A stretch of 32,000 nt of DNA from Candidatus Saccharimonadota bacterium (GCA_000503915.1 CP006915.1:360001-392000), one strand, 5' to 3'. Counted from the stretch's first letter, positions 1-32,000 are shown. Numbers and translations are program-made. The notes: generated from the sequence alone by a model not told the origin.

Positions 1-2
1 TC

Positions 3-1136: not shown

Positions 1137-1150
1137 GGTATACTAGTACT

Positions 1151-6470: not shown

Positions 6471-6475
6471 CGCTT

Positions 6476-7171: not shown

Positions 7172-7178
7172 AACTGTA

Positions 7179-7207
7179 TTGACATTTTTGATATAAAGTT
7201 GTAATAT
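7179..7207 (+). promoter_or_regulatory. sigma-70-type promoter: TTGACA, 17 nt, TAATAT; the -10 box ends 6 nt before ATG 7214
   Basis: Perfect -35 at 7179-7184, an exact 17-nt spacer, and -10 TAATAT at 7202-7207. There is no room for an SD, so a leaderless transcript is predicted. Confidence 0.6.
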
Positions 7208-7213
7208 CTAGTT

Positions 7214-7840: not shown

Positions 7841-7869
7841 CTAAAGAGTAAACACGGTACAATAAGCGT

Positions 7870-8445: not shown

Positions 8446-9307
8446 ACTGCCTGAAGTTGAAACAATACGACGTGGCTTGGAGCTACTCATCGTCGGTAAA
8501 AAGATCGTCAAGGTGACCTATGATTGGCCGAAAGGCTTTCCGAATAGCGAAGCCGACATAAGCGAATTTCTGGTTGGTGCGAGCATTAGCGCCGTACGAC
8601 GACGCGCAAAAGTTCTACTCATCGAATTATCAACCAATTACACGCTTGTCACACACCTCAAAATGACTGGACAATTGGTATTTCGCGGCAAGGAAACGTT
8701 TGGTGCTGGGCATCCGAACGCTAGTTTAGTTGGTGAACTACCTGATAAATCGACGCGCGTCATCATTTTATTCGATGACGACTCAACACTTTATTTCAAC
8801 GATCAGCGTAAGTTTGGCTGGATGAAGCTGTATCCGACACCGGAAGTAGCGAATATCGATTTTATGAAAAAAGTCGGTCCGGAGCCGCTCGAAGACGACT
8901 TCACGGCTAAAGAATTTGTTCAGCGGATTCGTCGACGAAATGGGACAACTATCAAGGCAGCTATACTAGATCAAACGGTTCTTGCCGGAGTGGGTAATAT
9001 TTATGCTGATGAAAGTCTGTGGGGCGCGAAGCTGCATCCAGCCACGCGAGTACGCGATGTGAGTGACGAGCAGGTCGCCGAATTGCTAAAAGAAATCAAA
9101 TATGTCATGAATCTCGCTATCGAGAAGGGTGGCTCGACGGACAAAAATTATGTCAATGCCGAAGGTAAGCGCGGTAGCTACATCGATTTCGCCCGAGTGT
9201 TTCGCCAGGAAGGTAAAGCCTGCCCGCGTCATCCCGACGTACTGATCGAAAAAATTCGCGTTGCTGGCAGGGGAACGCATATTTGTCCGGTTTGTCAGCT
9301 ACAATAG
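8438..9307 (+). CDS. mutM: formamidopyrimidine-DNA glycosylase
   Basis: Hallmark N-terminus MPELPEVETIRRGL, H2TH region, and a C-terminal zinc finger CPRH...(x16)...CPVC (C-H-C-C variant). Overlaps the HAD gene by 8 nt. Confidence 0.93.
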   Translation: MPELPEVETIRRGLELLIVGKKIVKVTYDWPKGFPNSEADISEFLVGASISAVRRRAKVLLIELSTNYTLVTHLKMTGQLVFRGKETFGAGHPNASLVGELPDKSTRVIILFDDDSTLYFNDQRKFGWMKLYPTPEVANIDFMKKVGPEPLEDDFTAKEFVQRIRRRNGTTIKAAILDQTVLAGVGNIYADESLWGAKLHPATRVRDVSDEQVAELLKEIKYVMNLAIEKGGSTDKNYVNAEGKRGSYIDFARVFRQEGKACPRHPDVLIEKIRVAGRGTHICPVCQLQ

Positions 9308-9311
9308 AGTT

Positions 9312-10223
9312 ATGATTTATTTCTTAATTGGTGAGAATTGGTATGCGCGCGACAAAGCGGTGAAAGCTATTGTCGAGCGAGCTGACGGACTGCCAGAATA
9401 TATCGACGCTGAAAAAGTCACTGCGGGTAGTTTGCGTGAGCTTTTGAGTGCACAAACACTTTTTAGTCAGACTCGTACAGTTGTGCTGCGACAGCCGTCG
9501 GAGAATAAGGATCTGTGGGACTCTCTCGAAGACATAGCGTCAGGGGTTGCCGACGACGTTACACTGATTATCATCGAAGACAAACCCGATAAGCGGACGA
9601 AGACCTACAAGGCGCTACAGAAACAGGCGACGACGAAGGATTTTCCGAACTGGACAGAACGTGATACAGGATTCGCAACCGAATGGCTACTCAAAGAGGC
9701 CAAAGCACGGGCAGTACCGCTGAAAACTCGTGACGCTCAGCTGATTATCCAGCGAGTAGGGGTCGACCAAGGAGGGCTGGCGGCAGCACTTGAAAAGATT
9801 AGTCTCATGCCGGCAATCACTCCCGAAGCAATCGAAGCGAGCATCGACACCACCCCGACCGAAAATGTCTTTGTACTGCTAGAGACCGCACTGAGTGGCA
9901 AACGGGAAACGCTGGCTACTATGATCGCGACCTTACGACAGACCGAAGATGCCTATCGTGTATTTGGCCTGTTGAGTAGCCAATTGCAGCAACTTGCACT
10001 GCTCGTCTATGCCAAGAAGCCAGCGGCTGAAGTAGCGCGCGATATTGGTGCGAAGAGTCCGTACATGCTGCAAAAGCTAGAGGGTACGGCGAAACGACTC
10101 GGTAAAGAGCACGTTGCTACACTACTGACAGTCTTTGCTAATGCCGATATGCGGCTGAAATCTACCGATAACGATCCATGGTCGGTAGTTGAGAGCGCAC
10201 TGTACTCGAGTCTAAAAGACTAA
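9312..10223 (+). CDS. holA: DNA polymerase III delta subunit
   Basis: MIYFLIGENWYARDKAV..., LFSQTRTVVLRQ, TLIIIEDKPDKRTKTYKAL and LAAALEKISL follow the HolA pattern. ATG 9312 is chosen over the ORF-track start 9261, which lies inside fpg. Confidence 0.8.
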   Translation: MIYFLIGENWYARDKAVKAIVERADGLPEYIDAEKVTAGSLRELLSAQTLFSQTRTVVLRQPSENKDLWDSLEDIASGVADDVTLIIIEDKPDKRTKTYKALQKQATTKDFPNWTERDTGFATEWLLKEAKARAVPLKTRDAQLIIQRVGVDQGGLAAALEKISLMPAITPEAIEASIDTTPTENVFVLLETALSGKRETLATMIATLRQTEDAYRVFGLLSSQLQQLALLVYAKKPAAEVARDIGAKSPYMLQKLEGTAKRLGKEHVATLLTVFANADMRLKSTDNDPWSVVESALYSSLKD

Positions 10224-20132: not shown

Positions 20133-20554
20133 TGGATAAAGACGCCATTTTGACTCGTATGGCGTCAATCCACTTTCCTGATCCAGGCGGCGTCATTATC
20201 GTAGGAGGCACGGCAATGGCAATGCTTGGCATCCGTAAAGCAGAGGATATTGATCTACTTCTCAGCTGGCAGAACTGGCGGTACGTAAGTACGCTGCCGG
20301 ACTGGAGGCTGACGACTTCATACGGAAGACGGCATTTTATTAGCATAGATGGCGATTTTGATGCATGGCGGTGGTGGTTCGATACAAACGCGAGACGACG
20401 GATCTCCTTTCAAGAGATAGCTTCTCACTGCCTCGTTACCCAGGCGGGGTACCTTCTCCCAGCGGCCGATTACCAGATAGTAATGAAGCGTCAACTAAAT
20501 CGCCCCAAAGACCGGGCCGATATTGAACGGATCGTACAGCATCGGTCGACATAA
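20132..20554 (+). CDS. nucleotidyltransferase-fold (minimal NTase-like) protein
   Basis: VIIVGGTAMAMLGIRKAEDIDLLL matches the G(G/S)x9-13DhDh NTase motif. A third acidic strand ISIDGDFD follows, and RPKDRADIERI at the C-terminus. The start overlaps the rnj stop by 1 nt (TAATG). Confidence 0.5.
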   Translation: MDKDAILTRMASIHFPDPGGVIIVGGTAMAMLGIRKAEDIDLLLSWQNWRYVSTLPDWRLTTSYGRRHFISIDGDFDAWRWWFDTNARRRISFQEIASHCLVTQAGYLLPAADYQIVMKRQLNRPKDRADIERIVQHRST

Positions 20555-20559
20555 GTCTC

Positions 20560-20588
20560 TTGTAAAATAGAGCTAAGTATGTTATTAT
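20560..20588 (+). promoter_or_regulatory. sigma-70-type promoter (TTGTAA, 17 nt, TATTAT) upstream of the PQ-loop gene
   Basis: Hexamers at 20560-20565 and 20583-20588. It predicts a ~58-nt leader before ATG 20653. Confidence 0.5.
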
Positions 20589-20652
20589 ATAAAAGTAAAT
20601 AACTTTAGCGGGTGTAGATCTCGCTATCATAAAACCAACAGTACCAAACACC

Positions 20653-20961
20653 ATGCATATTATTGAAGTCATCTATATTGTTAGTGCGACGTCGGCGATC
20701 ATCGCCTGCATGCCGCAGCTTAGCCAGATATATAAGGCAAAAGCCTCGGATGAGTTGAGCCTAGCTACTTGGACAACGTGGATGATCACCCAGATGGTGT
20801 CCCTCGGCTATGTTAGTTATGTCGGTAATGGTTTGTTGGTTGTCGTATCGACAGCGTGGGTGAGCTTCTATGCGTTGATGGTCTGCTTGATTGTAAAATA
20901 CCGCCGGCCGGTTGCTGTATTGGCCGAGGCTCCATCCCTTACTGACGAAGCTGAAACATAA
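20653..20961 (+). CDS. SemiSWEET / PQ-loop family small membrane transporter
   Basis: 102 aa with three predicted TM helices. PQ-loop signature ACMPQLSQIYKAKASDELSLATW in helix 1 and the following loop. Confidence 0.7.
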   Translation: MHIIEVIYIVSATSAIIACMPQLSQIYKAKASDELSLATWTTWMITQMVSLGYVSYVGNGLLVVVSTAWVSFYALMVCLIVKYRRPVAVLAEAPSLTDEAET

Positions 20962-20966
20962 GCTGC

Positions 20967-20995
20967 TTGCAAAACATTGTAAATTTTGCTATAAT
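20967..20995 (+). promoter_or_regulatory. sigma-70-type promoter (TTGCAA, 17 nt, TATAAT) upstream of ftsK
   Basis: Hexamers at 20967-20972 and 20990-20995. A second TATAAT at 21022-21027 ends 9 nt before ATG 21037. Confidence 0.55.
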
Positions 20996-21036
20996 ATGCA
21001 TGTATCTGCCGTTAAGCAGGGTATAATAAAACAGTT

Positions 21037-23259
21037 ATGGCTAAAAAGAAAAAGCGAACTACTCGAAAAAAAGCCGCCGCTAAACCAGCTCCGCAGCATG
21101 CATTGCCGACGGGTTTTTGGGGGCAGGTAGGTGCTGTCTTTTTGGCGGCTGTCTCTATATTGTTTATTGTGGCGTGGTTTGGGGTCGGGGGGCCCATCCT
21201 CGAGTGGCTCCAGCAAGCGGCGCTGGCAACGATTGGCTACGCCGTCTATATCCTACCGCTGCTATTTGTCTATCTCGCTGTTGAAATATTTCGAGCCGAA
21301 GGGAATCGTATCCCGATGGTGATGAAACTGAGTGCAGCGCTCCTAATCCTCTGGTTTAGTGGGCTGTTTGGTCTGATGGATCAGCGGGCGGCGCAAACTG
21401 GCGGGTTCTTTGGGCAACTACTCAACAACGGCGTATTGGCACTTGTCGACAAGGGAGTAGCGGTGTTTGTTTACGTGCTGCTAATCCTCGTTACCGTCCT
21501 ATTTATTGTCCGTGTCTCGCCGATTACACTGGTGAGAAAGCTCTGGGAGCTAATTCGTACCCGTAGTGAAGATGGTGAGCAAGCTGAAAACGTCAAAGTT
21601 ATGCGTAAGGCCGCCGAGTCCGATAACGTTGGTGCAGAGTTCAAGCTCAATGCTGGCGTACCAACGCTTGATTCGTCGGAGAGTAAACGTTCGGCACGTT
21701 TGTCGAGTTTGAAGAGTAGCGTTAAGCAAGATAAGGCGGCCGAAGAGCAGGCGGCACTCGTCGCAGTGAGCGACCCGAACTGGCAGCGTCCAAGTGTCGA
21801 TCTCCTAGAGAAAAAACAGAGTCCAGCCGATGCTGGCGATGTTCAGCATAACGCTCAGATTATCAAGGAAACGCTTGGCGAGTTCAGCATCGATGTCGAG
21901 ATGGAAGGCGCCAACATCGGGCCAAAAGTTACCCAGTACACCTTGAAACCACCAAGTGGGGTCAAGCTGACGCGTATCACGCAGCTAGAGACGAATATCG
22001 CGCTCAATCTCGCGGCTCAGAGTTTACGTATTGAAGCGCCGATCCCTGGCCAGCGCGCGGTCGGTATTGAAGTTCCAAACCTCAAAGCGGCCGATGTGCG
22101 TATTCGCGGTATCTTAGAGTCAAAGCAGTGGCAGGGCAATCGTGAGCCGCTTGGCTTTGCGATCGGGCGTGATATTTCCGGTGATGCCGTCGTTGGGCAG
22201 CTCAATAAGATGCCGCACCTACTGATCGCTGGACAGACCGGCTCTGGTAAGTCTGTCATGATCAATACGCTACTCACCAGCCTGCTGTATCGTAATAGTC
22301 CGAGCGAAATGAAACTCATCTTGGTTGATCCAAAGCAGGTAGAGATGGCGCCATATGCTGATATCCCACATCTATTGACTCCAGTTATCACCGAGCCGGA
22401 AAAGACGATCTCAGCACTGAAGTGGGCGGTCAATGAGATGGAGCGCCGCTATCGACTCCTCGCCGAAGAGAAAGTACGTGATATTAAGAGCTACAACCAG
22501 AAGGTTCAAAGTGGCGGAGCAAAAATATCTGTTCAAGATGATGAAGGCAATGCCCAAGAGGTTGACCAAGGTGCTATGCCGTATGTCGTCATTGTTATCG
22601 ATGAGCTGGCCGACCTGATGATGGTCGCAGCCCGCGACGTCGAAGCGCTGGTTGTCCGCCTAGCGCAAAAAGCCCGTGCCGTTGGAATCCATCTGGTACT
22701 GGCCACACAGCGGCCGAGCGTCGACGTGATCACTGGTCTGATCAAGGCTAATATCCCAGCTCGTATCGCCTTTACGGTTGCGAGCCAAGTTGATAGTCGC
22801 ACGATTCTCGACCAGGTGGGCGCCGAGAAATTACTAGGTCAAGGTGACATGCTTATGAAAACTGCTGAAATGCCGAAACCGCGCCGTCTCCAGGGAGCTT
22901 GGGTTATGGATGACGAGGTAGTGAAGGTAACCGATCACTTGCGCATGCAATCAGCGCCGCAGTACAACGACGAAGTCGTCTCGCAGCCTGTTCAGCTCAA
23001 TGGTAAGGGCGGCGTCGTAATGGACTTTGACCACGAGGGTGGCGATGATATGTATAAAGATGCGCTCCGCGTCGTCGTGGATAGCGGCAAGGCTTCGACC
23101 TCCCTGCTGCAGCGCCGCCTGCGCATCGGCTACGCTCGTGCTGCTCGTATTATCGAAGAGATGGAAGACCAAGGGGTGATTGGCCAAGCCGACGGTTCGC
23201 GGCCGCGCGAAGTGCTGATATCGAGTCTCGACGATCTCAATGCTTCGGATGATTTTTAG
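21037..23259 (+). CDS. ftsK: DNA translocase FtsK
   Basis: N-terminal TM helices and a linker. Motor domain with Walker A GQTGSGKS and Walker B VVIVIDELADLM. Gamma winged-helix domain STSLLQRRLRIGYARAARIIEEMEDQGVIG. Confidence 0.95.
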   Translation: MAKKKKRTTRKKAAAKPAPQHALPTGFWGQVGAVFLAAVSILFIVAWFGVGGPILEWLQQAALATIGYAVYILPLLFVYLAVEIFRAEGNRIPMVMKLSAALLILWFSGLFGLMDQRAAQTGGFFGQLLNNGVLALVDKGVAVFVYVLLILVTVLFIVRVSPITLVRKLWELIRTRSEDGEQAENVKVMRKAAESDNVGAEFKLNAGVPTLDSSESKRSARLSSLKSSVKQDKAAEEQAALVAVSDPNWQRPSVDLLEKKQSPADAGDVQHNAQIIKETLGEFSIDVEMEGANIGPKVTQYTLKPPSGVKLTRITQLETNIALNLAAQSLRIEAPIPGQRAVGIEVPNLKAADVRIRGILESKQWQGNREPLGFAIGRDISGDAVVGQLNKMPHLLIAGQTGSGKSVMINTLLTSLLYRNSPSEMKLILVDPKQVEMAPYADIPHLLTPVITEPEKTISALKWAVNEMERRYRLLAEEKVRDIKSYNQKVQSGGAKISVQDDEGNAQEVDQGAMPYVVIVIDELADLMMVAARDVEALVVRLAQKARAVGIHLVLATQRPSVDVITGLIKANIPARIAFTVASQVDSRTILDQVGAEKLLGQGDMLMKTAEMPKPRRLQGAWVMDDEVVKVTDHLRMQSAPQYNDEVVSQPVQLNGKGGVVMDFDHEGGDDMYKDALRVVVDSGKASTSLLQRRLRIGYARAARIIEEMEDQGVIGQADGSRPREVLISSLDDLNASDDF

Positions 23260-23280
23260 ATAATACGCTCCAATTTATCG

Positions 23281-23289
23281 TGCTATTAT
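23281..23289 (+). promoter_or_regulatory. extended -10 promoter TGcTATTAT ending 6 nt before the pilin ATG
   Basis: TGCTATTAT at 23281-23289 and ATG at 23296. No SD is present, so a leaderless transcript is predicted. Confidence 0.5.
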
Positions 23290-23295
23290 GGGGGC

Positions 23296-23892
23296 ATGAG
23301 AAAAACCATAAGCATGTCCGGTAGTGAATCTTTGTGCGCAAAGGGTCTACTGCGGCGTGGTTTCACGATTATTGAACTCCTGATCGTCATCGTGGTGATT
23401 GCAATTCTCGCAGCGATTACGGTCGTGGCGTATAACGGTATTCAAACTCGAGCGAATAATACGCAGACAATTGATGCCGTGAAGCAATTCGTTAAAGCAT
23501 ATCATCTCTACGCGATCGATAACGGTGACTACCCACAGTTTGCAGGCTGCTTAGGTGAAGGATATCCGGCGCCGAATGCTCGTTGTCTGTCTCAGAGCAC
23601 GGCAGAGTGTTGGGGCACTGGCGGTGCAACCAGCCTCGCTATAAACGAGGCGCTGAAGCCCTATATGAACGGTCGGGTGCCGTCTCCGAGTATGCAGCAA
23701 GCTACTTGCGGGGCTACTACCTATGTTGGTGCGTACGGTTCTTATTCAAGTACCACGAAAACAGTAACTGTATACATGATCTTGAAAGGTAATCAGGTCT
23801 GCCCGCCAATGAGTCCAAATACGGTTACCGTAGGAACGTCATTTATTGGTGATGCCACGAGGTGCTTCTATAGGATAGAGGCAGCCGCATAG
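23296..23892 (+). CDS. type IV pilin / prepilin-type N-terminal cleavage-methylation domain protein
   Basis: Class III signal LLRRG|FTIIELLIVIVVIAILAAITVVAY. The mature globular part contains 7 Cys. Confidence 0.85.
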   Translation: MRKTISMSGSESLCAKGLLRRGFTIIELLIVIVVIAILAAITVVAYNGIQTRANNTQTIDAVKQFVKAYHLYAIDNGDYPQFAGCLGEGYPAPNARCLSQSTAECWGTGGATSLAINEALKPYMNGRVPSPSMQQATCGATTYVGAYGSYSSTTKTVTVYMILKGNQVCPPMSPNTVTVGTSFIGDATRCFYRIEAAA

Positions 23893-23925
23893 CTAGCATA
23901 TTTCTAACAAGTATCGTATAATATC

Positions 23926-23950
23926 TAGGATATCAACTCAGCTTATCCTA
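23926..23950 (+). promoter_or_regulatory. hairpin in the rpsF 5' leader (candidate S6:S18 autoregulatory leader)
   Basis: TAGGATA (23926-23932) pairs perfectly with TATCCTA (23944-23950) around an 11-nt loop. It lies downstream of TATAAT (23917-23922) and upstream of the SD AAAGGAG. Confidence 0.35.
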
Positions 23951-23989
23951 CGAGGTAAGCATCCATAACGGATTCCAAAGGAGAACTAC

Positions 23990-24331
23990 GTGGAGTATGA
24001 ACTAACCGTTCTAATTCATCCGGATCTAGAAAGTGATCTGGAAAAGCCGCTGACGAAGGTCCGCGAGCTCATCAAAAGTACCGGTGGTACGATTAAAAAC
24101 GAAGATGTCTGGGGTAAGAAAAAGCTGGCTTACCGCATTAAGAAAGAAGACTTTGCTGTCTATGTGTGTTTTGAAGTAGAGCTACCCGCCGATGCGCCGC
24201 TCAAAATTTCCAACACGCTCAATATTACCGACGAAGTATTACGCTACCTACTGGTGAAGGTAGATGAAAAAGAACGCAAGGCGCTAGCCGCCGCCAAAAA
24301 GAACGCTGGAGAAGACAGCGAGGAGGAGTAG
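23990..24331 (+). CDS. rpsF: 30S ribosomal protein S6
   Basis: (M)EYELTVLIHPDLE..., WGKKKLAYRIKK and an acidic C-terminus. GTG start with SD AAAGGAG 6 nt upstream. Conserved rpsF-ssb-rpsR order. Confidence 0.9.
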   Translation: MEYELTVLIHPDLESDLEKPLTKVRELIKSTGGTIKNEDVWGKKKLAYRIKKEDFAVYVCFEVELPADAPLKISNTLNITDEVLRYLLVKVDEKERKALAAAKKNAGEDSEEE

Positions 24332-24334
24332 ACC

Positions 24335-24781
24335 ATGGCTCGTTCAATTAACCAAGTAATCCTGATGGGGCGTCTGACGCGTGATCCGGAAATGCGCACC
24401 ACCACGACTGGCAAGAGTATCGCAAGCTTTGGGCTGGCGGTTGACCGCAATACGCAGGACGACCAAGCGGACTTTTTCGATATTACCGCCTGGGAGAAAC
24501 TCGGCGAACTAGCAAATCAGTACTTAAGTAAAGGTCGCCGTTGCCTCGTACAGGGACGCTTGCGCCAAGACAGCTGGGACGACAAGGAAACGGGTAAGAA
24601 ACGCTCACGCGTTGAAGTCGTGGCGACAGATATTACCTTTCTCGATGGCCCAAATAGTAGCGACAATGGCGGCGGAAATGCCCCAGCAAGTAGCAATTCA
24701 TCTTCGAGCAAAAAGTCTGACGACGTCGTGATCGAAGAGATTGATGATAAACCAATTGATTTAAGTGAAATTCCATTCTAG
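24335..24781 (+). CDS. ssb: single-stranded DNA-binding protein
   Basis: OB-fold N-terminus INQVILMGRLTRDPEMRTTTTGKSIASFGLAV, a Gly/Ser-rich linker, and the acidic tip DDKPIDLSEIPF. Confidence 0.95.
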   Translation: MARSINQVILMGRLTRDPEMRTTTTGKSIASFGLAVDRNTQDDQADFFDITAWEKLGELANQYLSKGRRCLVQGRLRQDSWDDKETGKKRSRVEVVATDITFLDGPNSSDNGGGNAPASSNSSSSKKSDDVVIEEIDDKPIDLSEIPF

Positions 24782-24794
24782 GAGAATATAATTT

Positions 24795-24998
24795 ATGGCA
24801 CCAAAACGATACAAAAAAGCTGCATCGATGTACTTTGACTATAAAGACGTCAAAACCTTGCAGCGTTACATCAATGCATACGGACAGATTGAAAGCATTG
24901 CTAAAACTGGCTTGAGCCTGAAGCAGCAGCGTCAGCTCGCTGTGGCGATCAAGCGAGCTCGTCACTTGGCACTACTCCCATTTGTTGCATCAAATTAA
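24795..24998 (+). CDS. rpsR: 30S ribosomal protein S18
   Basis: [51 protein letters not shown] is the canonical S18 core. Confidence 0.95.
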
Positions 24999-25010
24999 GG
25001 AAACTACTTC

Positions 25011-25220
25011 ATGGGCGAAAAAAGACTTCACCACGATGATGAGTGGGGGTGGGACGAAGACTCAAATACAGAAGACGAACCGCGGGTGAGAATCCCTGAG
25101 ATTCCTAAAGGAGTCATTATTACAGCTGCCATTGGGCTTTCAGCGACAGCGCTCGGGCTCGGCATTAAACGGCTATACGATAAAGCACACGAAGGAAAAG
25201 GTGATGTATCAACCGACTGA
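25011..25220 (+). CDS. small hypothetical protein with one TM helix
   Basis: 69 aa. SD AAGGAAA about 8 nt upstream of the ATG. Acidic N-terminus, then the hydrophobic segment GVIITAAIGLSATALGLGI. The 3' end overlaps the efp start by 17 nt. Confidence 0.5.
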   Translation: MGEKRLHHDDEWGWDEDSNTEDEPRVRIPEIPKGVIITAAIGLSATALGLGIKRLYDKAHEGKGDVSTD

Positions 25221-25764
25221 CTTAAAGAAAGGTACTGTTATCCAGCTCGACGGCACGCCGTATCGAGTGACAGAGTATGGTCAAAAAGTTATGGGACGTG
25301 GCGGATCGATCGTCAATGTACGCCTGAAGAATCTACTCGATGGTAGTGTGGTGCCAAAAACGTTTAAGGGAGCCGATAAAATTGAGCCAGCAGAGGTGAA
25401 CACAAAAAGTGTTCAATACCTCTACAACGATAGCGACACCTACTTCTTTATGGATCCGGAAAGTTTTGAACAATTTGAACTTTCTTCAGAGGTTGTCGAT
25501 ACGGCGAGTGACTACTTAAAAGAAGGCGATATGCTCGGTCTACAATTCTTCGCTGGTCGTGTTATCAACGTCGAACTACCTAAAAATATCTACCTCGAAG
25601 TGACCTATGCCGAGGATATCGTGAAAGGTGATACGACCAGTGCGGTTATGAAAGACGCCACGCTTGAAACCGGGCTTAAGATTCGTGTACCAGCTTTTAT
25701 TAAGACCGGTGATATTGTTTCGGTCGATACCGCTACGGGTGAGTACCGCGAACGGAAGAAATAA
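25204..25764 (+). CDS. efp: elongation factor P
   Basis: Aligns by eye along its whole length with E. coli EF-P (LDGTPYRV..., YLYND, GDT, VPAFIKTGDIVSVDTATGEYRER). ATG 25204 is preceded by GAAGGAAAAGG. Confidence 0.93.
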   Translation: MYQPTDLKKGTVIQLDGTPYRVTEYGQKVMGRGGSIVNVRLKNLLDGSVVPKTFKGADKIEPAEVNTKSVQYLYNDSDTYFFMDPESFEQFELSSEVVDTASDYLKEGDMLGLQFFAGRVINVELPKNIYLEVTYAEDIVKGDTTSAVMKDATLETGLKIRVPAFIKTGDIVSVDTATGEYRERKK

Positions 25765-25765
25765 T

Positions 25766-26482
25766 ATGAAACAGCGCTTGGACGTGCTGATGGTAAAACG
25801 CTGGTTGGCGCAGTCTCGCTCCCAAGCTGAGAACCTGATCCGACTCGGTCAGGTTATGGTGAACGGGGTGCCAGTGCAAAAAGCTGGTCATTTCGTTTTG
25901 GAGACCGACGACATTTCTCTCTCGAGCGATGAACGTTACGTCTCACGTGCCGGTTTGAAGCTGGCGAGTGTGAGCCAGGCGCTCGGTCTTGATTTCCAAA
26001 CTAAGACCGTACTTGACGTCGGTTCGAGTACCGGCGGATTTACCGATTATGCGTTGCAGCATGGTGCTAGGAAAGTGTTTGCCGTTGATGTCGGTACGGA
26101 GCAGTTGCACCCGTCACTGAGAGGTAACTCTGCTATTGAGTTGCATGAAAAGACCGATATCCGTGATTTTAGGCCGACCGAGCCAGTCGATATAGTGGTG
26201 ATGGACGTGAGTTTCATTAGCTTGCGGGAGGTTCTACCGCAGATTGCTACGTTTTGTTCGCCAACTACTCAGGTCGTGGCGATGCTCAAACCGCAATTTG
26301 AAGCAGGCCGCCAGCAGATAAACAAAGGTATTATCAAAAATGATGCGATCCGTCGCCAGATCCTAAAAGATTTTGAAGCTTGGGTAAGACGGTATTTTGT
26401 CATCCAGGATAAAAAAGACAGCGAGGTGCATGGTAGCAAGGGCAATCGCGAGCGATTTTACTTACTGAAAATTATTTCGTGA
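25766..26482 (+). CDS. tlyA: TlyA-family rRNA 2'-O-methyltransferase
   Basis: N-terminal S4 domain (RLDVLMVKRWLAQSRSQAENLIRLGQVMVNG) and an FtsJ-like SAM motif VLDVGSSTGGFTDYAL. ATG 25766 lies 1 nt after the efp stop. Confidence 0.88.
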   Translation: MKQRLDVLMVKRWLAQSRSQAENLIRLGQVMVNGVPVQKAGHFVLETDDISLSSDERYVSRAGLKLASVSQALGLDFQTKTVLDVGSSTGGFTDYALQHGARKVFAVDVGTEQLHPSLRGNSAIELHEKTDIRDFRPTEPVDIVVMDVSFISLREVLPQIATFCSPTTQVVAMLKPQFEAGRQQINKGIIKNDAIRRQILKDFEAWVRRYFVIQDKKDSEVHGSKGNRERFYLLKIIS

Positions 26483-27554
26483 CGTTGAAGCGGAATTCGA
26501 CCACGTCACCGGGCTGCATGATATACTCCTTGCCCTCGGTGCGCATTTTGCCTGCGGCGCGGGCAGCTACTTCCGAACCAGCCGCGACCAGATCATCAAA
26601 ATCGACAATTTGGGCGGCGATAAAACCTTTTTCAAAATCACTGTGAATAACACCGGCGGCTTGTGGTGCAGTCGCACCTTTATGAATCGTCCAAGCACGG
26701 ACTTCTTTTTCGCCGGCGGTTAAGTAGCTTTGCAGGCCAAGCGTATCGTAGGCTGTTTTGATCATCTGGCGAAGGCCAGTTTCAGCGACTCCGTAACTTT
26801 CGAGTAGTTCTTTTGCGTCGGCTTCATCGAGTCCTTTGATCTCTTCTTCGAGCTTGGCGCAGACAAAGAGGCAGTGGGCGGGCGCAACTAGGCTCGTGAG
26901 GTCATGTTGTTTTGCGCTATCGGCCAGGGTGGCTTCGTCAACGTTAAAGGCATAAATAACTGGCTTGGCCGTGAGCAAGTGCAGGTCAGCGATCATTTCA
27001 TAGTCTAAGCTGGGGAGGGCAGATAATGGAGTGCCACCTTCGAGGTGTCGCTTGAGGGACTCGAGGTACTGCACCTGCTCACGCGCTGCAGGACGAGCTT
27101 TTGCTTCTTTTGTCAGTTTCGGAATGCGACTGTCAATACTTTGCAAGTCAGCTAAGATGAGCTCGGTGTTAATAATCTCGATATCAGCTTTCGGATTTAC
27201 CGACCCGTTGTCGTGGCGCAGAATGTCATCATTTTCAAAAGCGCGGACGATGTGCACGATCGCATCGCCCTCGCGGATATTAGCAAGGAATTTATTTCCT
27301 AGGCCTTCACCCTTTGAGGCGCCAGCCACGAGACCGGCGATATCGACGAAGGTGACGGTTGCAGGGATGACTTTCTGGGCCGAATACATTTTTTCCAAGG
27401 TCGCCAAGCGATCGTCTGGTACTGGTACAATACCGGTATTTGGCTCGATTGTCGCAAATGGGTAGTTGGCGGCCAAGATATCATTATTAGTAAGTGCATT
27501 AAAAAGCGTCGATTTGCCGACGTTTGGTAGACCAACGATGCCAATGGTTAACAT
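26472..27554 (-). CDS. ychF: ribosome-binding ATPase YchF
   Basis: G1 motif IGIVGLPNVGKSTLFNALT, the full Obg-like GTPase/TGS architecture, and the C-terminal GDVVEFRFNV. 360 aa. Confidence 0.95.
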   Translation of the reverse strand: MLTIGIVGLPNVGKSTLFNALTNNDILAANYPFATIEPNTGIVPVPDDRLATLEKMYSAQKVIPATVTFVDIAGLVAGASKGEGLGNKFLANIREGDAIVHIVRAFENDDILRHDNGSVNPKADIEIINTELILADLQSIDSRIPKLTKEAKARPAAREQVQYLESLKRHLEGGTPLSALPSLDYEMIADLHLLTAKPVIYAFNVDEATLADSAKQHDLTSLVAPAHCLFVCAKLEEEIKGLDEADAKELLESYGVAETGLRQMIKTAYDTLGLQSYLTAGEKEVRAWTIHKGATAPQAAGVIHSDFEKGFIAAQIVDFDDLVAAGSEVAARAAGKMRTEGKEYIMQPGDVVEFRFNVTK

Positions 27555-29109
27555 TTAACACAACCTGTTCTGACGTTGGAATTGGTAATAATCCCCATAT
27601 AGTTATTTCTTCTTTCGTTGCAACAATATTTGTAACCAGTTTTTCGATTACTTTTCTCTTGTCGTTAAAGCTCAGTTTTCCTACTAATTTTACCACACCG
27701 TCAACAAGTTGTTCCAGAGGTACAGTGGGCTTGTTCATTAACTCAGCCTCAATAGCATTTAGTTCATAGACTACTGCTTCACGTTTTTCATTCAATTCTT
27801 GAACTACTTCTTTGTAAATTTTCTCAGGCATAGTACCTTTGCCATAGGCTTTCACATATCTTACCTCTTCGTCGTCAAAGGCTTTTAAGCGATTTTTTAG
27901 CTCTTCTGAGCGGTGTTCGAGTGGGGAAGCGGACTTCTGCCATCTTTGGGCTTGTTCTACGACTAGGGAAGGATTAGCAAGTAAATCTTTGACGTTCTCC
28001 CAGACTAATGAATCTAGGACAGTTACGTTGATTCCTTTTTCATAGCAGGTTCGAGGTAGAGGATATTTGTTCAGTCTATCGGTGCATCGGTAGTAAGCAC
28101 TCCCATTAGCAGGGTCGCCCGCACGAGAACAGCCACATGGACACTTAATTAGTCCTGTAAGTAAGTATTTATTCTTACTATTATTGCGTGAGTTAAGCCG
28201 TTTATTTATACCCAGTTGTACCTGCACTTTATCGAATAAAGACGGCTCTACTATTATAGGAACATCAATGGCGAGCCATTCTTCTTTGGGGCGTTGTACT
28301 CGACTGCCTTTAACTACTTTTCGATATTCTTTGTCAGGGTTCTGTGGTTTTTTGGTCTCAACTGACTCACTTTTGTTGTAGTAGTGCTTACCCATATAGG
28401 TCGTATCTCTTACTAATCGGTCAAGTGTACTGCTACTCCACTGGTCACGAAGACCTTTTGGCGGTTTCATATCTGCATCAACAAGTAGTCTTTTTACTTC
28501 ATGCTTAGATTTTCCTTCTGCAATCCAGTTGAAGATTTGACGTACAATTTCTGCTTGTTTTTCGTTTATAGAGAAGTATCCTTCTTTAGCATCTGGACCA
28601 GTTTTAACCCTGTGGTGGTAGTCATAACCAAACTTTGGATTATAGCCGAGTAGCTTCTTATTTTCACGAACTTTTCTGACCTTACCGATACGCATACGCT
28701 CTGCTATTTTTACACGTTCATATTCATGGAAAATACCCATAACACTTCCCATAAGGACTTCTTCTGTAGAAGTGCCATTGATGTCGTGTAAACTGATGCA
28801 CTCAATGCCGTTATCTTTTGCTTCGCCAAGAATAATTTCTTGATGCACATATTTTCTGGATATACGACCTCGGTCATAAAAGTATAGAATATCAAACTTT
28901 TTGCTTTGCATATCTGCCCGTAAGTCATCAAGTCCAGGTCTTTTAATAATTGCACCACTCCAACCATCATCTTTATAAATTAGGTCGGGAGATAGTACAT
29001 AACCATCAGCCAAGATTCTAGCTTCAAGTTCCATGTATTGGCTTTTAATCGTTTCTTCATCTTCTTGGTGAGCTGTACTCACACGCATATATATTGCCAC
29101 TTTTTTCAT
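27499..29109 (-). CDS. large serine recombinase (integrase)
   Basis: Resolvase-type catalytic domain VAIYMRVSTAHQ (Ser nucleophile) and DRGRISRK. Recombinase domain, zinc-ribbon CPCGC...YYRC, and a C-terminal coiled coil. The last 56 nt overlap ychF. Confidence 0.93.
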   Translation of the reverse strand: MKKVAIYMRVSTAHQEDEETIKSQYMELEARILADGYVLSPDLIYKDDGWSGAIIKRPGLDDLRADMQSKKFDILYFYDRGRISRKYVHQEIILGEAKDNGIECISLHDINGTSTEEVLMGSVMGIFHEYERVKIAERMRIGKVRKVRENKKLLGYNPKFGYDYHHRVKTGPDAKEGYFSINEKQAEIVRQIFNWIAEGKSKHEVKRLLVDADMKPPKGLRDQWSSSTLDRLVRDTTYMGKHYYNKSESVETKKPQNPDKEYRKVVKGSRVQRPKEEWLAIDVPIIVEPSLFDKVQVQLGINKRLNSRNNSKNKYLLTGLIKCPCGCSRAGDPANGSAYYRCTDRLNKYPLPRTCYEKGINVTVLDSLVWENVKDLLANPSLVVEQAQRWQKSASPLEHRSEELKNRLKAFDDEEVRYVKAYGKGTMPEKIYKEVVQELNEKREAVVYELNAIEAELMNKPTVPLEQLVDGVVKLVGKLSFNDKRKVIEKLVTNIVATKEEITIWGLLPIPTSEQVVLNVNHWHRWSTKRRQIDAF

Positions 29110-29291
29110 TGCTTTTTCCTTTTAGTACTGTCTGAAATAAACTTGGAGAGTGAGGTGGCACTTATTCGATAACCCTTACCTAATTTCACCGCTTTCAGCT
29201 TGCCGCTCTTAATGTAATTCAACACGCTTTGCCAGTGAACTTGGAGTATTTCTGCAACTTCCGCAACTGTATAAAACTTATATTCAGACAT
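29106..29291 (-). CDS. excisionase-family helix-turn-helix DNA-binding protein
   Basis: 61 aa. YTVAEVAEILQVHWQSVLNYIKSGKLKAVKLGKGYRI matches the HTH_17/MerR-like excisionase pattern. ATGA overlap with the integrase start. Confidence 0.85.
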   Translation of the reverse strand: MSEYKFYTVAEVAEILQVHWQSVLNYIKSGKLKAVKLGKGYRISATSLSKFISDSTKRKKQ

Positions 29292-29301
29292 AGTACTTAT
29301 T

Positions 29302-29329
29302 ATTATAAATAGTTATTAGTATTTGTAAA
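29302..29329 (-). promoter_or_regulatory. promoter for the HTH-integrase operon (TTTACA, 16 nt, TATAAT on the minus strand)
   Basis: The reverse complement of 29324-29329 is TTTACA and of 29302-29307 is TATAAT. The -10 box ends 10 nt before ATG 29291. Confidence 0.5.
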
Positions 29330-29331
29330 CA

Positions 29332-29481
29332 TCAATCCGTTGGATTGTTATTTTCTTCTACCATTTCGAACAGCATGTTAAATACCTGTTCAATCAGAAT
29401 CGTTTCTTTTTCTACTTGTCGATAAACGACAGTAGGTTCTTTATTTTTCTTTTTTTGCGAGTCGTTTAGAAAATCAGTCAT
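29332..29481 (-). CDS. possible small ORF (49 aa)
   Basis: My own translation of the minus strand: MTDFLNDSQKKKNKEPTVVYRQVEKETILIEQVFNMLFEMVEENNNPTD. It fills the gap between the RepA-like and HTH genes. No SD precedes it, and it is below the ORF-track size cut-off. Confidence 0.25.
   Translation of the reverse strand: MTDFLNDSQKKKNKEPTVVYRQVEKETILIEQVFNMLFEMVEENNNPTD
29333..29347. promoter_or_regulatory. perfect palindrome CAATCC-gtt-GGATTG abutting the -35 box (candidate operator or terminator)
   Basis: Inverted repeat with 6-bp arms at 29333-29338 and 29342-29347, 4 nt from the -35 hexamer of the HTH-integrase promoter. Confidence 0.3.
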
Positions 29482-29497
29482 ATATAGTAATACGTTT

Positions 29498-30490
29498 CTA
29501 ACGCACTCCTGTATCGGTTCTGATATGGTAGTAAACGGCAGTTCTTGGACCTTCGGAGGTGAAGACTAACTCATCAACGATTAGTTCTTCAAGGTATTCA
29601 CCAAGTCGATTCATACCAATCTTTTTACCATTACTCGCAAGTAACTCATAAAGCAGCTTCTTTGTAATATCCGACTCGTTAATCTTCAATGTATCGACGA
29701 TATATTGTTTGTCGTCAGCTCGTTCACTTGACCGATTTTTTTCTTCGCCTACAAACTCAAAATAACTGGTTTCGTTTTCCAAAACAAAGCGTAATTTGAA
29801 GGGTCGTATTTCTGGCATATAACGGTTTTTAGTCTGCTGAACTAAAACGTATTCACTGCCATTTTGACGGCTCATCGCCATGTGACAATCAACTGCGGCA
29901 AGTATGTCGGAACTACCTCTCATATCTCCCGATGGATTGTAGTTCCCTTGGTTAGGTTTTCGATTGTGGTGAGCGATAAGTACAGACAGCCCACTATCAG
30001 TAAGTTGTCTAAATAGGTTAAACAACTCCGACATATCTTTGGAGGCATTTTCGTCGCTTGAATGAAGTCGAACTAAAGAGTCAAACATCACTAAGCCGAT
30101 TTCTTTTTCCTTACAGATAACTAAAAGGCTTTCGACGTATGCCTCTGTTACTCTCGTATTCTGACGAGAGGTATAGTGTATCGGTAATCCTTCAACAGAG
30201 CCTAGCTGCTTAAAGCGTTCTTGTAGCATTCTAGGACCCGATTCTTCGTCTACAAATAGGACGCCTGTTTTGTTGGTACTGTACTTTCCAAAAAGGCTTC
30301 TACCTTCCGCAATGGAGAGAGTTATTTCAAGCATTAGCCACGTTTTGAACGAGCCTGGTGCTGCTGACAATATGGTCAGCCCTCCCTCTGGTATGATGCT
30401 CTCCACCGTCCACCTTGCAGTAGGGAAGTACTGCGTCATAAGTGAATCGAGTGAAGCCACATCAATTATTTTCTTTTCTGATGTAACCAT
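29498..30490 (-). CDS. RepA-like RecA-fold ATPase (AAA_25-type) with a C-terminal winged-helix-like region
   Basis: GGLTILSAAPGSFKTWLMLEITLSIAEG is a deviant Walker A, with Phe where the Gly before Lys is expected. GVLFVDEES, GLVMFDSLVRL (Walker B) and VLIAHHNRK match the RSF1010 RepA / AAA_25 pattern. SD AAGGAAA lies upstream. Confidence 0.8.
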   Translation of the reverse strand: MVTSEKKIIDVASLDSLMTQYFPTARWTVESIIPEGGLTILSAAPGSFKTWLMLEITLSIAEGRSLFGKYSTNKTGVLFVDEESGPRMLQERFKQLGSVEGLPIHYTSRQNTRVTEAYVESLLVICKEKEIGLVMFDSLVRLHSSDENASKDMSELFNLFRQLTDSGLSVLIAHHNRKPNQGNYNPSGDMRGSSDILAAVDCHMAMSRQNGSEYVLVQQTKNRYMPEIRPFKLRFVLENETSYFEFVGEEKNRSSERADDKQYIVDTLKINESDITKKLLYELLASNGKKIGMNRLGEYLEELIVDELVFTSEGPRTAVYYHIRTDTGVR

Positions 30491-30561
30491 TTTATTTCCT
30501 TGTAAGCACCATAGCGGACAAACTATTAACTACGATGCTTTTTGCTGTTTGTCTATTCTTA

Positions 30562-30591
30562 ATTGTATGCCCATTTTTGAAGAAAATGTAA
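30562..30591 (-). promoter_or_regulatory. candidate promoter for the RepA-like gene (TTACAT, 18 nt, TACAAT on the minus strand)
   Basis: The reverse complements of 30586-30591 and 30562-30567 give the hexamers. The predicted leader contains the inverted repeat GACAAAC (30517-30523) / GTTTGTC (30547-30553). Confidence 0.4.
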
Positions 30592-30631
30592 CCGAATGCG
30601 GTGCTAATTCTTGAGGTGAATAAAGATTTTT

Positions 30632-31321
30632 TTAACGATTCTTATCTGTTATTTTTACGTCCGCAAATAATTGCAGGACATTATTCTGATACCTGAGATG
30701 CTCTTTGCTAAGACCCCTTAAACCTGCTCGAAGTTTTGAAACTTTTTTGCTAAAATCGTTAATTCCATCAGGGTCTTTTACTGTTGTTCGGAGGTTTACG
30801 ACTTTCATTGCTTCCGAGCGGCTTAAACGATAATCGGGGGAGTTAAGCAATTTACCAAACAGCTTTCGGTTGTCTTTTTTCCTGTATAATTTGAAACCTT
30901 CGCCGTTGATTTTACCTTCACCAGTTTTCATTGAATAGATGATTCTAGGTAGGTTACCTTTTGAGGGTATAGACTCATCGAGTAATTTATACCGTTCGAG
31001 TAAGGCATCTACGTCTACGATAGATACTCGTATTCCGTCTAAAGTACCGAACATAGAGAGAATTTTTATAAGTCCCTGGGTTTCCAGACGTTGAAGTGTC
31101 TTTTCAATCTTTAATAATTCGTGTACTTGAAACATTGACTCTCCGCTCATTATGGAGTTTGAATCAAACGCAGGCGTAGGTATTTGTATTTTTTCTGGCT
31201 TTTTGTAGCGAGTGTACTCATCAACAATCGGAAGTAAAATCTCTAGTTCTGCCTGTTTGTCTGTTAGTGATTCGCTACTCATTATTACTATTGTATGCGA
31301 TAGCTGTTGATATGTACTCAT
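30632..31321 (-). CDS. hypothetical protein, possible winged-helix DNA-binding C-terminus
   Basis: 229 aa, Lys-rich. The C-terminal segment GFKLYRKKDNRKLFGKLLNSPDYRLSRSEAMKVV...VSKLRAGLRGL loosely resembles OmpR/PhoB-type effector domains (weak). Alternative start at ATG 31282, preceded by TACAAT 7 nt upstream. Confidence 0.6.
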   Translation of the reverse strand: MSTYQQLSHTIVIMSSESLTDKQAELEILLPIVDEYTRYKKPEKIQIPTPAFDSNSIMSGESMFQVHELLKIEKTLQRLETQGLIKILSMFGTLDGIRVSIVDVDALLERYKLLDESIPSKGNLPRIIYSMKTGEGKINGEGFKLYRKKDNRKLFGKLLNSPDYRLSRSEAMKVVNLRTTVKDPDGINDFSKKVSKLRAGLRGLSKEHLRYQNNVLQLFADVKITDKNR

Positions 31322-31395
31322 GCGAATGGTTCAAGAACTGCTAGCTGAAAATATTTCGTGAATCAAATACGGACTATCCATATTAAGATATATAC

Positions 31396-31866
31396 ATGAC
31401 GAAAGGTATTTATGGTGCGTTCAATAAAACAACGGGTGAGTGTATCTATGTTGGCAAGTCTAACAGTTCTATTACAGGTCGCTGGAATCACCACAAAAAA
31501 CTTTGGAAGGCAGGCAGACCCATACATCGCCAACCGCTACTGACCCAGTATTTATATTTCTTTGGCGACCAAGTCGAGTGGAGAATACTTTCAGAGTTGA
31601 GCGAACTCAAACCTGCTGACTGGATATATACGGACAATGATTTACTAGAAGCTGCCGAAAGAGAAATCTTCTTTCAACTTAAACCCATCGCTAATGCATA
31701 TATACCGAATGGCTGGGATACCTTGCGATTGGTGGAAAATAATGGAGAACCATATCCCATTAGCGAGTGGAATCCGTATGCTGTCGAGGTTAGGATTTCA
31801 AAGGGTCAGTTTGCTCGATTTTCTGATGATAAGCCACATTTCACCAATCCGAATATACTTTCCTAA
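31396..31866 (+). CDS. GIY-YIG domain nuclease
   Basis: GIYGAF-(x7)-ECIYVGKS gives the GIY...YVG pair at canonical spacing. It is followed by ITGRWNHH (Arg) and AAEREIFFQLKP (Glu). Divergently transcribed from the 229-aa gene. Confidence 0.7.
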   Translation: MTKGIYGAFNKTTGECIYVGKSNSSITGRWNHHKKLWKAGRPIHRQPLLTQYLYFFGDQVEWRILSELSELKPADWIYTDNDLLEAAEREIFFQLKPIANAYIPNGWDTLRLVENNGEPYPISEWNPYAVEVRISKGQFARFSDDKPHFTNPNILS

Positions 31867-31889
31867 TTCTGCTATGCAGGTATATAATA

Positions 31890-32000
31890 CTAATAGACGA
31901 CATACACACTGGCATCTGCAAAGCGTCCCTGAAAGTCTTTATACAATACTCGGCTCCCTGTCGTGAGGATACTATCAACGGTTAGTACACTCCACCAGAT
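31890..32000 (-). CDS. 3' end of a minus-strand ORF entering from beyond the window (partial)
   Basis: My own translation of the minus strand from the window edge: IWWSVLTVDSILTTGSRVLYKDFQGRFADASVYVVY, with stop TAG at 31892-31890. Too short to assess. Confidence 0.25.
   Translation of the reverse strand: MWWSVLTVDSILTTGSRVLYKDFQGRFADASVYVVY

Follow-up and report, generated by a model that had tools for sequence, protein, structure and literature searches.

A 12,190-bp large serine recombinase island within the first codons of ychF in Candidatus Saccharibacteria bacterium RAAC3_TM7_1, very probably a cargo island resembling the staphylococcal cassette chromosome

We analyzed a 32,000-nucleotide stretch (here, the window) of the closed 845,464-bp genome of Candidatus Saccharibacteria bacterium RAAC3_TM7_1, focusing on an integrated element that adjoins the housekeeping GTPase gene ychF. 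A preliminary description, made from the sequence alone, had read the region as one end of an integrated element in a host resembling Saccharibacteria of the Candidate Phyla Radiation (CPR), and RAAC3_TM7_1 does belong to the Saccharibacteria. The ychF gene (AHB42285.1, 26472..27554, minus strand) encodes a protein with Pfam MMR_HSR1 and YchF-GTPase_C domains and has a chimeric 5' end. Next to it on the minus strand lie genes for a large serine recombinase (LSR; AHB42286.1, 27499..29109, 536 aa in its integrated form, here called the integrase), a 61-aa helix-turn-helix (HTH) protein of the excisionase family (29106..29291), a 49-aa open reading frame (ORF; 29332..29481), a 330-aa AAA_25 ATPase (29498..30490), and a 229-aa ORF (30632..31321), followed on the plus strand by a divergent 156-aa ORF (31396..31866). 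The recombinase, HTH, 49-aa ORF, ATPase, and 229-aa ORF are present as previously described; a further ORF said to enter the window from outside does not appear among the called genes, none of which crosses position 32000.

The region adjoining ychF differs from the rest of the window in composition. GC content is 0.4995 for host positions 1-27541 and 0.3947 for the 12,190-bp element, and the values of 1-kb windows form separate ranges, from 0.458 upward in the host and up to 0.436 in the element. A single change point in GC, placed by maximum likelihood, falls at 27474, and tetranucleotide profiles correlate with the host mean at 0.80-0.89 in host chunks and at 0.28 and 0.16 in element chunks. 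This quantitative scan bears out the compositional boundary proposed near ychF, with the break at the junction. Extending the sequence past the window, as had been suggested, relied on contig L001, a 12,435-bp MEGAHIT k127 contig from the same project that is 100% identical to window positions 27419-32000 over 4,582 bp (L001 7854-12435 corresponds to window 32000-27419) and adds 7,853 bp, in which GC remains near 0.39. The second boundary was located there, 7.7 kb past position 32000. Window positions 27542-32000 (4.46 kb) are the integrase-proximal third of the element, and L001 127-7853 is the remainder.

The insertion itself is documented by an empty site. We reconstructed the native YchF protein as MS joined to LTIGIVG..., 361 aa in length, and then looked up this exact sequence in a protein collection. 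It exists in a strain represented by contig L091 (Logan SRR6486448), which matches window 20499-27548 at 99.94% identity (4 mismatches in 7,050 bp) and L001 1-126 at 100% identity, with the two host flanks abutting one another. Because the flanks abut at an empty site, the insertion is precise, with a length of 12,190 bp, and near-identical strains are polymorphic for it. The preliminary description had proposed rebuilding the attachment site from relatives and comparing the genes upstream of ychF: L091 holds attB exactly as rebuilt (...TATAATAAGAAAAATGAGTCTTACTATTGGCATCGTTGGTCTACC), and the approximately 28 to 30 other Saccharibacteria ychF loci that we examined also lack the element.

L001 consists of the element plus approximately 126 bp of host DNA at each end, starting 126 bp before the attR divergence point and ending 119-127 bp past the attL core (window 27419). 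A k=127 de Bruijn graph breaks at such points if a sample contains alternative alleles, and the two ends are thus an indirect sign that sample SRR944699 contained the occupied allele together with an empty (or excised) one. In L091 (positions 1-9919), a type IV pilus cluster (PilM, two T2SSE-type ATPases, and T2SSF) stands immediately upstream of ychF, and the same stretch encodes 999-aa and 179-aa proteins. The RAAC3 element is thus wedged between the pilus cluster and ychF.

The junction had been placed upstream of ychF, flush with its ATG (27554). The true junction is at 27541/27542, which is 12-13 nt inside ychF, at codons 5-6, and the insertion falls within the first codons of the gene. 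The ychF start codon and first three codons are element DNA; conversely, the last 12 codons of the integrase ORF (residues 525-536, RWSTKRRQIDAF) and its stop codon are host ychF DNA. The two genes overlap by 56 nt. We defined attL (27516..27564, minus strand), which comprises the P arm, core, and B' arm (GTTGTGTTA-AATGTTAACC-ATTGGCAT-CGTTGGTCTACCAAACGTCGGC), against attR (L001 87-145), the empty attB (L091 9980-10050), and 30 empty Saccharibacteria sites. The 8-bp core ATTGGCAT (27538..27545, minus strand) is common to attL, attR, and attB, with copies at L001 119-126 and 12309-12316, the latter corresponding to window 27545-27538. On the attR side, L001 87-100 (CCTCTGGTATAATA) is the displaced native ychF promoter region, and L001 107-139 (ATG AGT CTT ACT ATT GGC ATA GTG AGT TTC TAA) is a stub of native ychF.

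Joining the two ends of the element rebuilds an attP of approximately 46 bp, GTTGTGTTA-AATGTTAACC-ATTGGCAT-AGTGAGTTTC-TAACACAAC, in which a perfect 9-bp inverted repeat stands equidistant from the 8-bp core (9+10+8+10+9 bp); the predicted attP junction sequence is GTTGTGTTAAATGTTAACCATTGGCATAGTGAGTTTCTAACACAAC. All four att sites (attL, attR, attB, and attP) are reconstructed in this way. attL and attR share just 8 bp (5 bp in a related element from a lake, L002/L088), and the element ends carry no long direct repeats; like those of LSR elements in general, the att sites are short, with imperfect dyad symmetry around a 2-bp crossover. The center of attP symmetry is GG at window 27541-27542, the first two bases and invariant part of the conserved ychF glycine codon, a short way before the P-loop codons. 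The crossover is bracketed to these two bases because differences flank them: on the left, core position 3 differs between the attL of L002 (ATT) and the attR of L088 (ATC), and on the right, attL position 6 (GGC/GGA) follows the host in elements with at least 90% identical integrases. We infer from this comparison that GG at 27541-27542 is the crossover dinucleotide.

In approximately 30 element-free Saccharibacteria, ychF begins ATG AGT TTA TCT ATC GGC ATC GTC GGC (MSLSIGIVG). In RAAC3, the element-derived start, ATG TTA ACC A(TTG), follows the integrase coding sequence, and the window reads ATG TTA ACC ATT GGC ATC GTT. The resulting N-terminus is MLTIGIVG versus native MSLTIGIVG, with one residue changed and the P-loop and remainder of the protein untouched; the P arms of L083, P0005, and L090, related copies, resemble the native MSLSIG start more closely. 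Saccharibacteria with empty sites (L003-L033) share a (C)CTCTGTTA(T/A)AAT-like box, conserved and just 5-12 nt ahead of the ychF ATG, a spacing that suggests a ychF mRNA with a very short leader or none. The element has displaced this native promoter, which is now 12.2 kb away and faces a 10-codon stub, a small ORF, and a permease gene. After insertion, ychF lies behind the HTH-integrase operon. A promoter-like site, TTTACA-16-TATAAT (29302..29329, minus strand), lies upstream of HTH-int(-ychF) and agrees with the consensus at 11 of 12 positions; promoter-like sites in this region are no more numerous than in shuffles, and this site should be read as a consensus match alone. Presumably, ychF is transcribed by read-through from there or from an internal promoter.

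The integrase has the domains of an LSR, with all scores above cut-offs: PF00239 Resolvase (86.5 bits, residues 4-151), the N-terminal catalytic domain with the serine nucleophile, and C-terminal to it PF07508 Recombinase (52.3 bits) and PF13408 Zn_ribbon_recom (31.4 bits). The nearest structure to its catalytic domain is TP901-1 Int (3bvp, E 7e-11), with whose catalytic domain the motif AIYMRVSTAHQ aligns. Its best NCBIfam matches are CcrB, XisF, CcrA, and CcrC, all far under their cut-offs, and it is not a Ccr protein (CcrB 82 bits versus a cut-off of 900, CcrA 60 versus 700, CcrC 58 versus 900). The nearest phage integrase in GenBank is that of Wolbachia phage WO (30-34% identity), and the maximum identity to any is 34%.

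A search of 5.8 billion protein clusters returned at least 374 integrase homologues at E<=1e-20. The best 120 of these (53-96% identity) all end in a frame-shifted translation of the ychF P-loop region (for example, ...H followed by RRPAKRRQIDAF), a signature that indicates specificity for the ychF site across the family. Among other loci that adjoin ychF, integrase identity is 76% in L082, 63% in L084/85, 53% in L090 (closed genome CP060232.1), and 45% in L067. The called gene order is HTH_17, integrase, and then ychF in L082, L084, and L090, and the 56-nt overlap between integrase and ychF is identical in L082 and L084, with such an overlap recorded in L090 too. We located the far ends of L082, L084, and L067 by searching for the peptide motif G.RGYS; element sizes in the family range from approximately 6.7 to 12.2 kb. 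In one subfamily (P0025, P0027, P0029, P0032, P0044, and P0046), a tandem duplication affects the approximately 21 residues that precede the host-encoded tail; the unit, NS(L/Y)FA(T/N)HLEN..(R)..LNV.H, corresponds to a 63-nt duplication of the P arm and core within the integrase ORF.

Comparison with a lake metagenome-assembled genome (MAG; L002) shows movement between divergent hosts. Over 5.0 kb, the element that L002 carries at the same site is 95.1% identical to that of RAAC3 (integrase 95.2%, helicase 96.4%); the two ychF genes share 72.2% identity, and the switch in identity falls at the core. The cluster of integrases at 90% identity or above has 12 members with at least eight different host-encoded C-terminal tails, representing at least eight ychF alleles. 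These patterns demonstrate mobility of near-identical elements between divergent hosts.

The backbone of the element consists of the integrase, the excisionase-type HTH, a small ORF, a RepA/DnaB-like helicase, and an OmpR-type winged-helix protein. The 61-aa HTH protein (HTH_17, 50 bits; TIGR01764, 42.5 bits versus a cut-off of 28.8), whose gene shares an ATGA overlap with the integrase start and keeps its position in L082, L083, L084, and L090, is a candidate directionality factor or regulator. The 49-aa ORF has no family match, and a 46-49-aa ORF occupies the same position in L082 and L084. The AAA_25 ATPase (PF13481, 99.9 bits) has a RepA(RSF1010)/DnaB-like helicase core: its PHROG matches are the helicase domains of primase-helicases, and its sole match in PDB is RSF1010 RepA (1g8y, E 1e-3). 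In L082, the helicase slot is occupied by a DnaD_N/HTH_36 protein, a replacement that supports a replication role for this slot. The 229-aa ORF, for which the likely start is M14 at 31282 (216 aa), had no match in Pfam, PHROG, or PADLOC and has 11 cluster representatives among 1.8 billion proteins. Its AlphaFold2 model (pLDDT 85.7) combines a novel N-terminal domain with a C-terminal OmpR/PhoB-type winged helix, the last approximately 95 residues matching the PhoB, ToxR, and AdeR effector domains in Foldseek (prob 0.97-1.0, TMt 0.5-0.68, E 0.02-0.1). Given the helicase and the winged-helix protein, the element may replicate after excision.

Between this backbone and the far end lies exchangeable cargo. 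In L001, the order from the far end is a P' arm with a small conserved ORF; an amino-acid permease; a 177-aa membrane protein; a Macro pseudogene; a second, internal P' arm; a DedA/UptA-like protein; a Macro-domain ADP-ribose hydrolase; a 136-aa Sie/BLIP-like membrane protein; 175-aa and 209-aa proteins; a DinB-like Y-family polymerase with an overlapping 94-aa partner; a 52-aa ORF; and then the GIY-YIG-like gene, the winged-helix, helicase, 49-aa ORF, HTH, and integrase genes. The cargo of this copy comprises the GIY-YIG-like protein, the DinB-like polymerase with its 94-aa partner, secreted/membrane proteins, and the Macro, DedA/UptA, and permease genes. Profile searches confirmed the other domains named in the preliminary description, and GIY-YIG is a weaker call: the 156-aa product has an N-terminal GIY-YIG-like motif (GIYGAF...IYVGKS), and its PF01541 score of 21.5 bits falls below the cut-off of 22.6. 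This protein is 97% identical at the amino-acid level in L002. Pfam searches at E<=10 found no match for the 49-aa, 52-aa, or 94-aa ORFs or for the far-end tail peptide discussed below, and PADLOC detected no defense system in the RAAC3 copy, with a negligible DarG match for the Macro protein alone. The 94-aa ORF (L001 7334-7618) overlaps the start of the polymerase gene (L001 6094-7347) by 14 nt, and L002 has a 95-aa ORF at the matching position; by analogy, the 94-aa product may be a polymerase accessory factor like UmuD or YolD, to which no similarity was detected.

Other members of the family carry different genes in the same region. On its 95%-identical backbone, the L002 element has DUF305, DsbA, VKOR, and CDF efflux genes; L082 carries Hachiman HamA with a helicase, L083 a restriction-modification pair (methyltransferase and RE_NgoFVII) and Z1, L084 Ham1p-like proteins, and L090 a KAP NTPase. 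These differences on a shared backbone indicate that cargo is swapped. At the far end of the L002 element (L088 2780-3210), we also observed a gene absent from the RAAC3 copy, whose product has a CxxC...H motif (...CRICGIEKKLTQEHYIPRAAGG...) and is HNH-like in look.

The far part of the RAAC3 element is itself composite. The second P' arm (L001 2637-2731) is 80% identical to the outer arm (123-217), the similarity beginning exactly at the core GCAT, and it abuts a truncated Macro pseudogene (L001 2385-2640) that is 77% identical to the intact Macro gene (3572-4042); the whole of L001 2385-2731 lies about 5.1-5.5 kb beyond window position 32000. From the inner arm and pseudogene, we conclude that an outer 2.5-kb module (permease, 177-aa protein, and Macro fragment) is joined to an inner 9.7-kb element. 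This nested architecture recurs in L002 with a different truncated cargo gene: the internal P' arm there (approximately 1080-1300; ...IKVLTQLPFNKLKLRMPNTDRGGRGYSDEY...) adjoins 78 bp left from the Y-family polymerase gene. L083 has two tandem attR-type junctions (116-195 and 1650-1730), in each of which a P' arm follows a separate ychF promoter and stub, and these promoters and stubs come from different ychF alleles (ATGGCATTAGAAATCGGCAT and ATGAGCTCACTTCAAATTGGCAT). L086 (838-2143) has a 1.2-kb module without an integrase (P' arm, small ORF, and 136-aa and 182-aa ORFs). An attR-type junction flanks it on one side, and on the other comes a second promoter, where attB is intact and ychF has its native start; the module appears to be cis-mobilizable or to have been left behind, and a usable attB remains for the next element. 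L089 (8046-17348) is a decayed ychF island with two attR-type junctions and a 6-kb toxin-antitoxin stretch (three PIN genes, Zeta, ParE/Phd, and HD), in which the integrase is deleted except for its last approximately 19 codons, which still abut ychF. For the origin of such arrays, we considered secondary integration followed by homologous deletion between integrase genes, as well as cis-mobilizable modules.

Both boundaries, the empty attB, the composition, and the profile searches agree with the initial reading of one end of an integrated element, and we regard it as very likely that the 12,190-bp LSR integrative island at ychF of RAAC3_TM7_1 is a cargo island similar to the staphylococcal cassette chromosome (SCC). 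It is best described as an SCC-like island for cargo and defense, integrative and probably replicative. In the mechanism that we propose, the integrase would recombine the symmetric attP of approximately 46 bp, GTTGTGTTA-N10-ATTGGCAT-N10-TAACACAAC, with an attB that spans the ychF promoter and first codons, and strand exchange would occur at the GG of the conserved glycine codon that shortly precedes those of the P-loop. The P arm supplies a new start codon and three codons, such that ychF remains intact, and the displaced ychF promoter with its 10-codon stub is left at the far end, pointing into the cargo.

The preliminary description had seen no capsid, terminase, relaxase, or primase in the 4.4 kb available to it and had left the element type open. 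That absence holds for the complete 12.19 kb, and the type can now be narrowed to a cargo island rather than a prophage. Pfam and PHROGs searches of all called genes found no capsid, terminase, portal, tail, lysis, or primase domain, and domains of relaxases, type IV coupling proteins (T4CP), and type IV secretion systems (T4SS) were likewise absent from the called genes (oriT was not searched). A prophage was rejected given the lack of structural genes by Pfam/PHROGs and of any relative of the integrase in IMG/VR (2.9 million contigs); an integrative and conjugative or mobilizable element given the lack of relaxase, T4CP, or T4SS domains; and a pipolin given the lack of a piPolB/PolB domain, the sole polymerase being IMS/DinB-like and of the Y family. 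Because virion and conjugation genes are missing, transfer between cells would occur by natural transformation or through some helper, as discussed for SCC elements. The RAAC3 genome encodes ComEC and DprA (PMC3812714), which makes natural transformation plausible.

If the element were a phage satellite of the phage-inducible chromosomal island (PICI) type, its backbone would serve excision and replication after helper induction, and some of the unassigned ORFs would redirect capsids for a genome of approximately 12 kb. The order of integrase, AlpA-like HTH, and helicase and the sizes of 7-12 kb match the PICI type, seven ORFs are available for such functions, and the spread of 95%-identical elements over hosts that are 72% identical implies an efficient vehicle. 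With respect to what defines PICIs, an integrase, a regulator, and a primase-replication module are present in analogous form, and no packaging gene was detected, with seven ORFs unassigned. However, no ORF has a PHROG match to a capsid, scaffold, small terminase, portal, or packaging-interference protein, the 2.9 million IMG/VR contigs contain no relative, and the variable region holds cargo (defense, toxin-antitoxin, metal efflux, and permease genes) rather than a conserved morphogenesis module. Moreover, prophages were reported absent from environmental TM7 genomes including RAAC3 (Shaiber et al., PMC7739484). We therefore judge a satellite to be unlikely. It is still less probable, indeed very improbable, that the element is a decayed, immobile remnant of a prophage or larger element with a relic integrase. 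Decayed islands do occur at this site (the 3' integrase remnant of L089 and the integrase-less L086), and no attP form was found, but in RAAC3 the backbone ORFs are all intact, and both att arms are intact and symmetric. A remnant also fits poorly with presence/absence polymorphism between 99.94%-identical strains, with integrases of at least 90% identity across at least eight ychF alleles, and with 95% nucleotide identity in a 72%-identical host. Given its intact ORFs and the near-identical copies in many hosts, the RAAC3 copy may be active. An assembly chimera or a native low-GC region would account for L001 ending within approximately 126 bp of both junctions, as contigs do at repeats; the junction is identical in the closed RAAC3 genome, the independent MEGAHIT contig, and the unrelated lake MAG with its 95%-identical element, and the empty site with flanks 99.94-100% identical refutes this explanation, which we give next to no weight.

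Several observations weigh against an active, replicating SCC-like island. The excised circle was not seen: the attP (P-P') junction is absent from JGI metagenome contigs and IMG/VR, a degenerate attP pattern also had no match in IMG/VR, and the reconstructed circular-form integrases of 563 aa and 556 aa are absent from a collection of 15 billion proteins. We found no iterons, tandem repeats, or notable inverted repeats suggesting an origin, such that replication is deduced from gene content. Some copies are clearly immobile, as the decayed integrase-less relatives L086 and L089 illustrate. Finally, no function could be assigned to 7 of the 16 genes (those for the 49-, 52-, 94-, 136-, 175-, 177-, and 209-aa products), some of which might serve in packaging or hijacking.

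Because the integrase ORF runs across the att core, excision is predicted to yield a different protein, reading ...VVLNVNHWH followed by SEFLTQLPFEIKLAMPPTDSGNRGYSDKYIDRLKINLTR and a stop codon, with a length of 563 aa. The predicted free-form tail is conserved and consists of 39 aa from the far (P') arm (SEFLTQLPFEIKLAMPPTDSGNRGYSDKY..., with the pattern SEFLTQLPFE..MPPTDSGxRGYSD..). We examined this frame in ten P' arms (L001 outer and inner, two from L083, L086, L088, L002 inner, L082, L084, and L090) from subfamilies with integrases 53-100% identical to the RAAC3 integrase. The tail frame, which is that of the integrase, is open from the core in all ten, and the other two frames are full of stops. 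After the Met, substitutions number 54, 39, and 132 at the first, second, and third codon positions, respectively, the third being dominant; between the att arm and the Met, they number 34, 9, and 25, with I/L and A/T/S swaps. The L090 spacer is 18 nt longer with the frame kept and has no ATG before the motif. Two frame-breaking arms both belong to the integrase-less L089, where the peptide is fused in frame to the ychF stub (MSLSLSIG; P0124).

One possible reading, which we put forward tentatively and hold to be rather doubtful as yet, is that the att core is a built-in state sensor and that the free-form integrase includes the tail and depends on it in some way. Integration would then swap the 39-aa tail for approximately 12 arbitrary residues read from ychF, and the same peptide could be produced alone from the captured ychF promoter at attR. 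The tail or peptide might tune the directionality, stability, or expression of the integrase according to whether the element is free or integrated, while ychF would be placed under element control at the same time. Three results argue against a tail linked to the integrase: the Met is conserved in most arms; a search with the tail peptide in the 5.8 billion clusters found four short attR-side ORFs, none of them fused to an integrase, these being all that gene callers predict; and the databases contain no fused form. The peptide matches no known tag or family, and a search of JGI metagenome contigs with the P'-arm pattern gave three matches, all attR-type.

Among known systems, the closest analogue of the ychF island is the SCC-type island. 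In both, an LSR integrates a cargo island into one end of a conserved housekeeping gene, which is not inactivated, virion and conjugation genes are lacking, and composite tandem arrays with repeated att-type junctions occur (here, in L001, L083, L086, and L089). The SCC backbone carries a helicase-type replication gene, Cch, and the ychF-element backbone carries a helicase-type replication gene too. The differences lie in the target, which is the 5' end of ychF (codons 5-6) rather than the 3' end of rlmH (orfX), in the single non-Ccr recombinase gene with the att core inside its ORF, and in the host, a CPR bacterium of the Saccharibacteria. A further likeness concerns cargo, which in SCC is swappable and includes defense genes (PMC11470126). 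Phage LSRs (TP901-1, A118, SPbeta SprA, and phage WO) have the same three-domain architecture and attP/attB logic, but the ychF element is not a phage. As for the tail switch, in the mycobacteriophages BPs and Brujita attP lies inside a coding sequence, that of the repressor; recombination there depends on a tyrosine integrase, and the part lost is a degradation tag. There, as would be the case here, integration alters the C-terminus of an encoded protein, giving free and integrated forms; in contrast, the gene split in the ychF element is that of the serine integrase itself, and expression of its free form is a prediction. In its logic, this integration-dependent immunity (PMC3694055) comes closest to the proposed tail switch.

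ychF has been a target or neighbor of mobile elements elsewhere. Bacillota pipolins that bear LSRs and carry defense genes integrate at ychF (PMC11551731); unlike them, the island described here has no piPolB or any family-B polymerase. A pneumococcal prophage adjoins ychF and affects its expression (PMC8637289). The islands specific for dusA also insert at the 5' end of a conserved housekeeping gene and supply a replacement 5' end (PMC4482086), but they use tyrosine (DAI) integrases and occur in Proteobacteria. The RAAC3 genome paper does not contain the words recombinase, integrase, or mobile (PMC3812714), and our full-text literature search, in a library with few subscription journals, found no description of these Saccharibacteria elements. 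An LSR cargo island that restores the end of a housekeeping gene is a known kind of element; the family, the host phylum, the att architecture, and the possible state-dependent tail are apparently undescribed.

In Saccharibacteria and the other CPR bacteria, mobile elements have hardly been characterized, and here a complete element, its four att sites, and an empty-site strain are delimited. Hundreds of related integrases in public data target the same few ychF codons, and the family carries defense systems, toxin-antitoxin and metal-resistance genes, and a translesion polymerase between divergent Saccharibacteria. For this group, which has few genetic tools so far, the integrase, its attP of approximately 46 bp, and the natural attB present in most Saccharibacteria are candidates for site-specific integration vectors. 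The exchange of ends between the integrase gene and ychF raises the questions of whether a serine integrase can sense its own integration state and whether a mobile element takes over expression of a housekeeping GTPase. If the state-dependent tail is real, a whole family of CPR mobile islands would share an integration-dependent switch that acts on the serine integrase itself.

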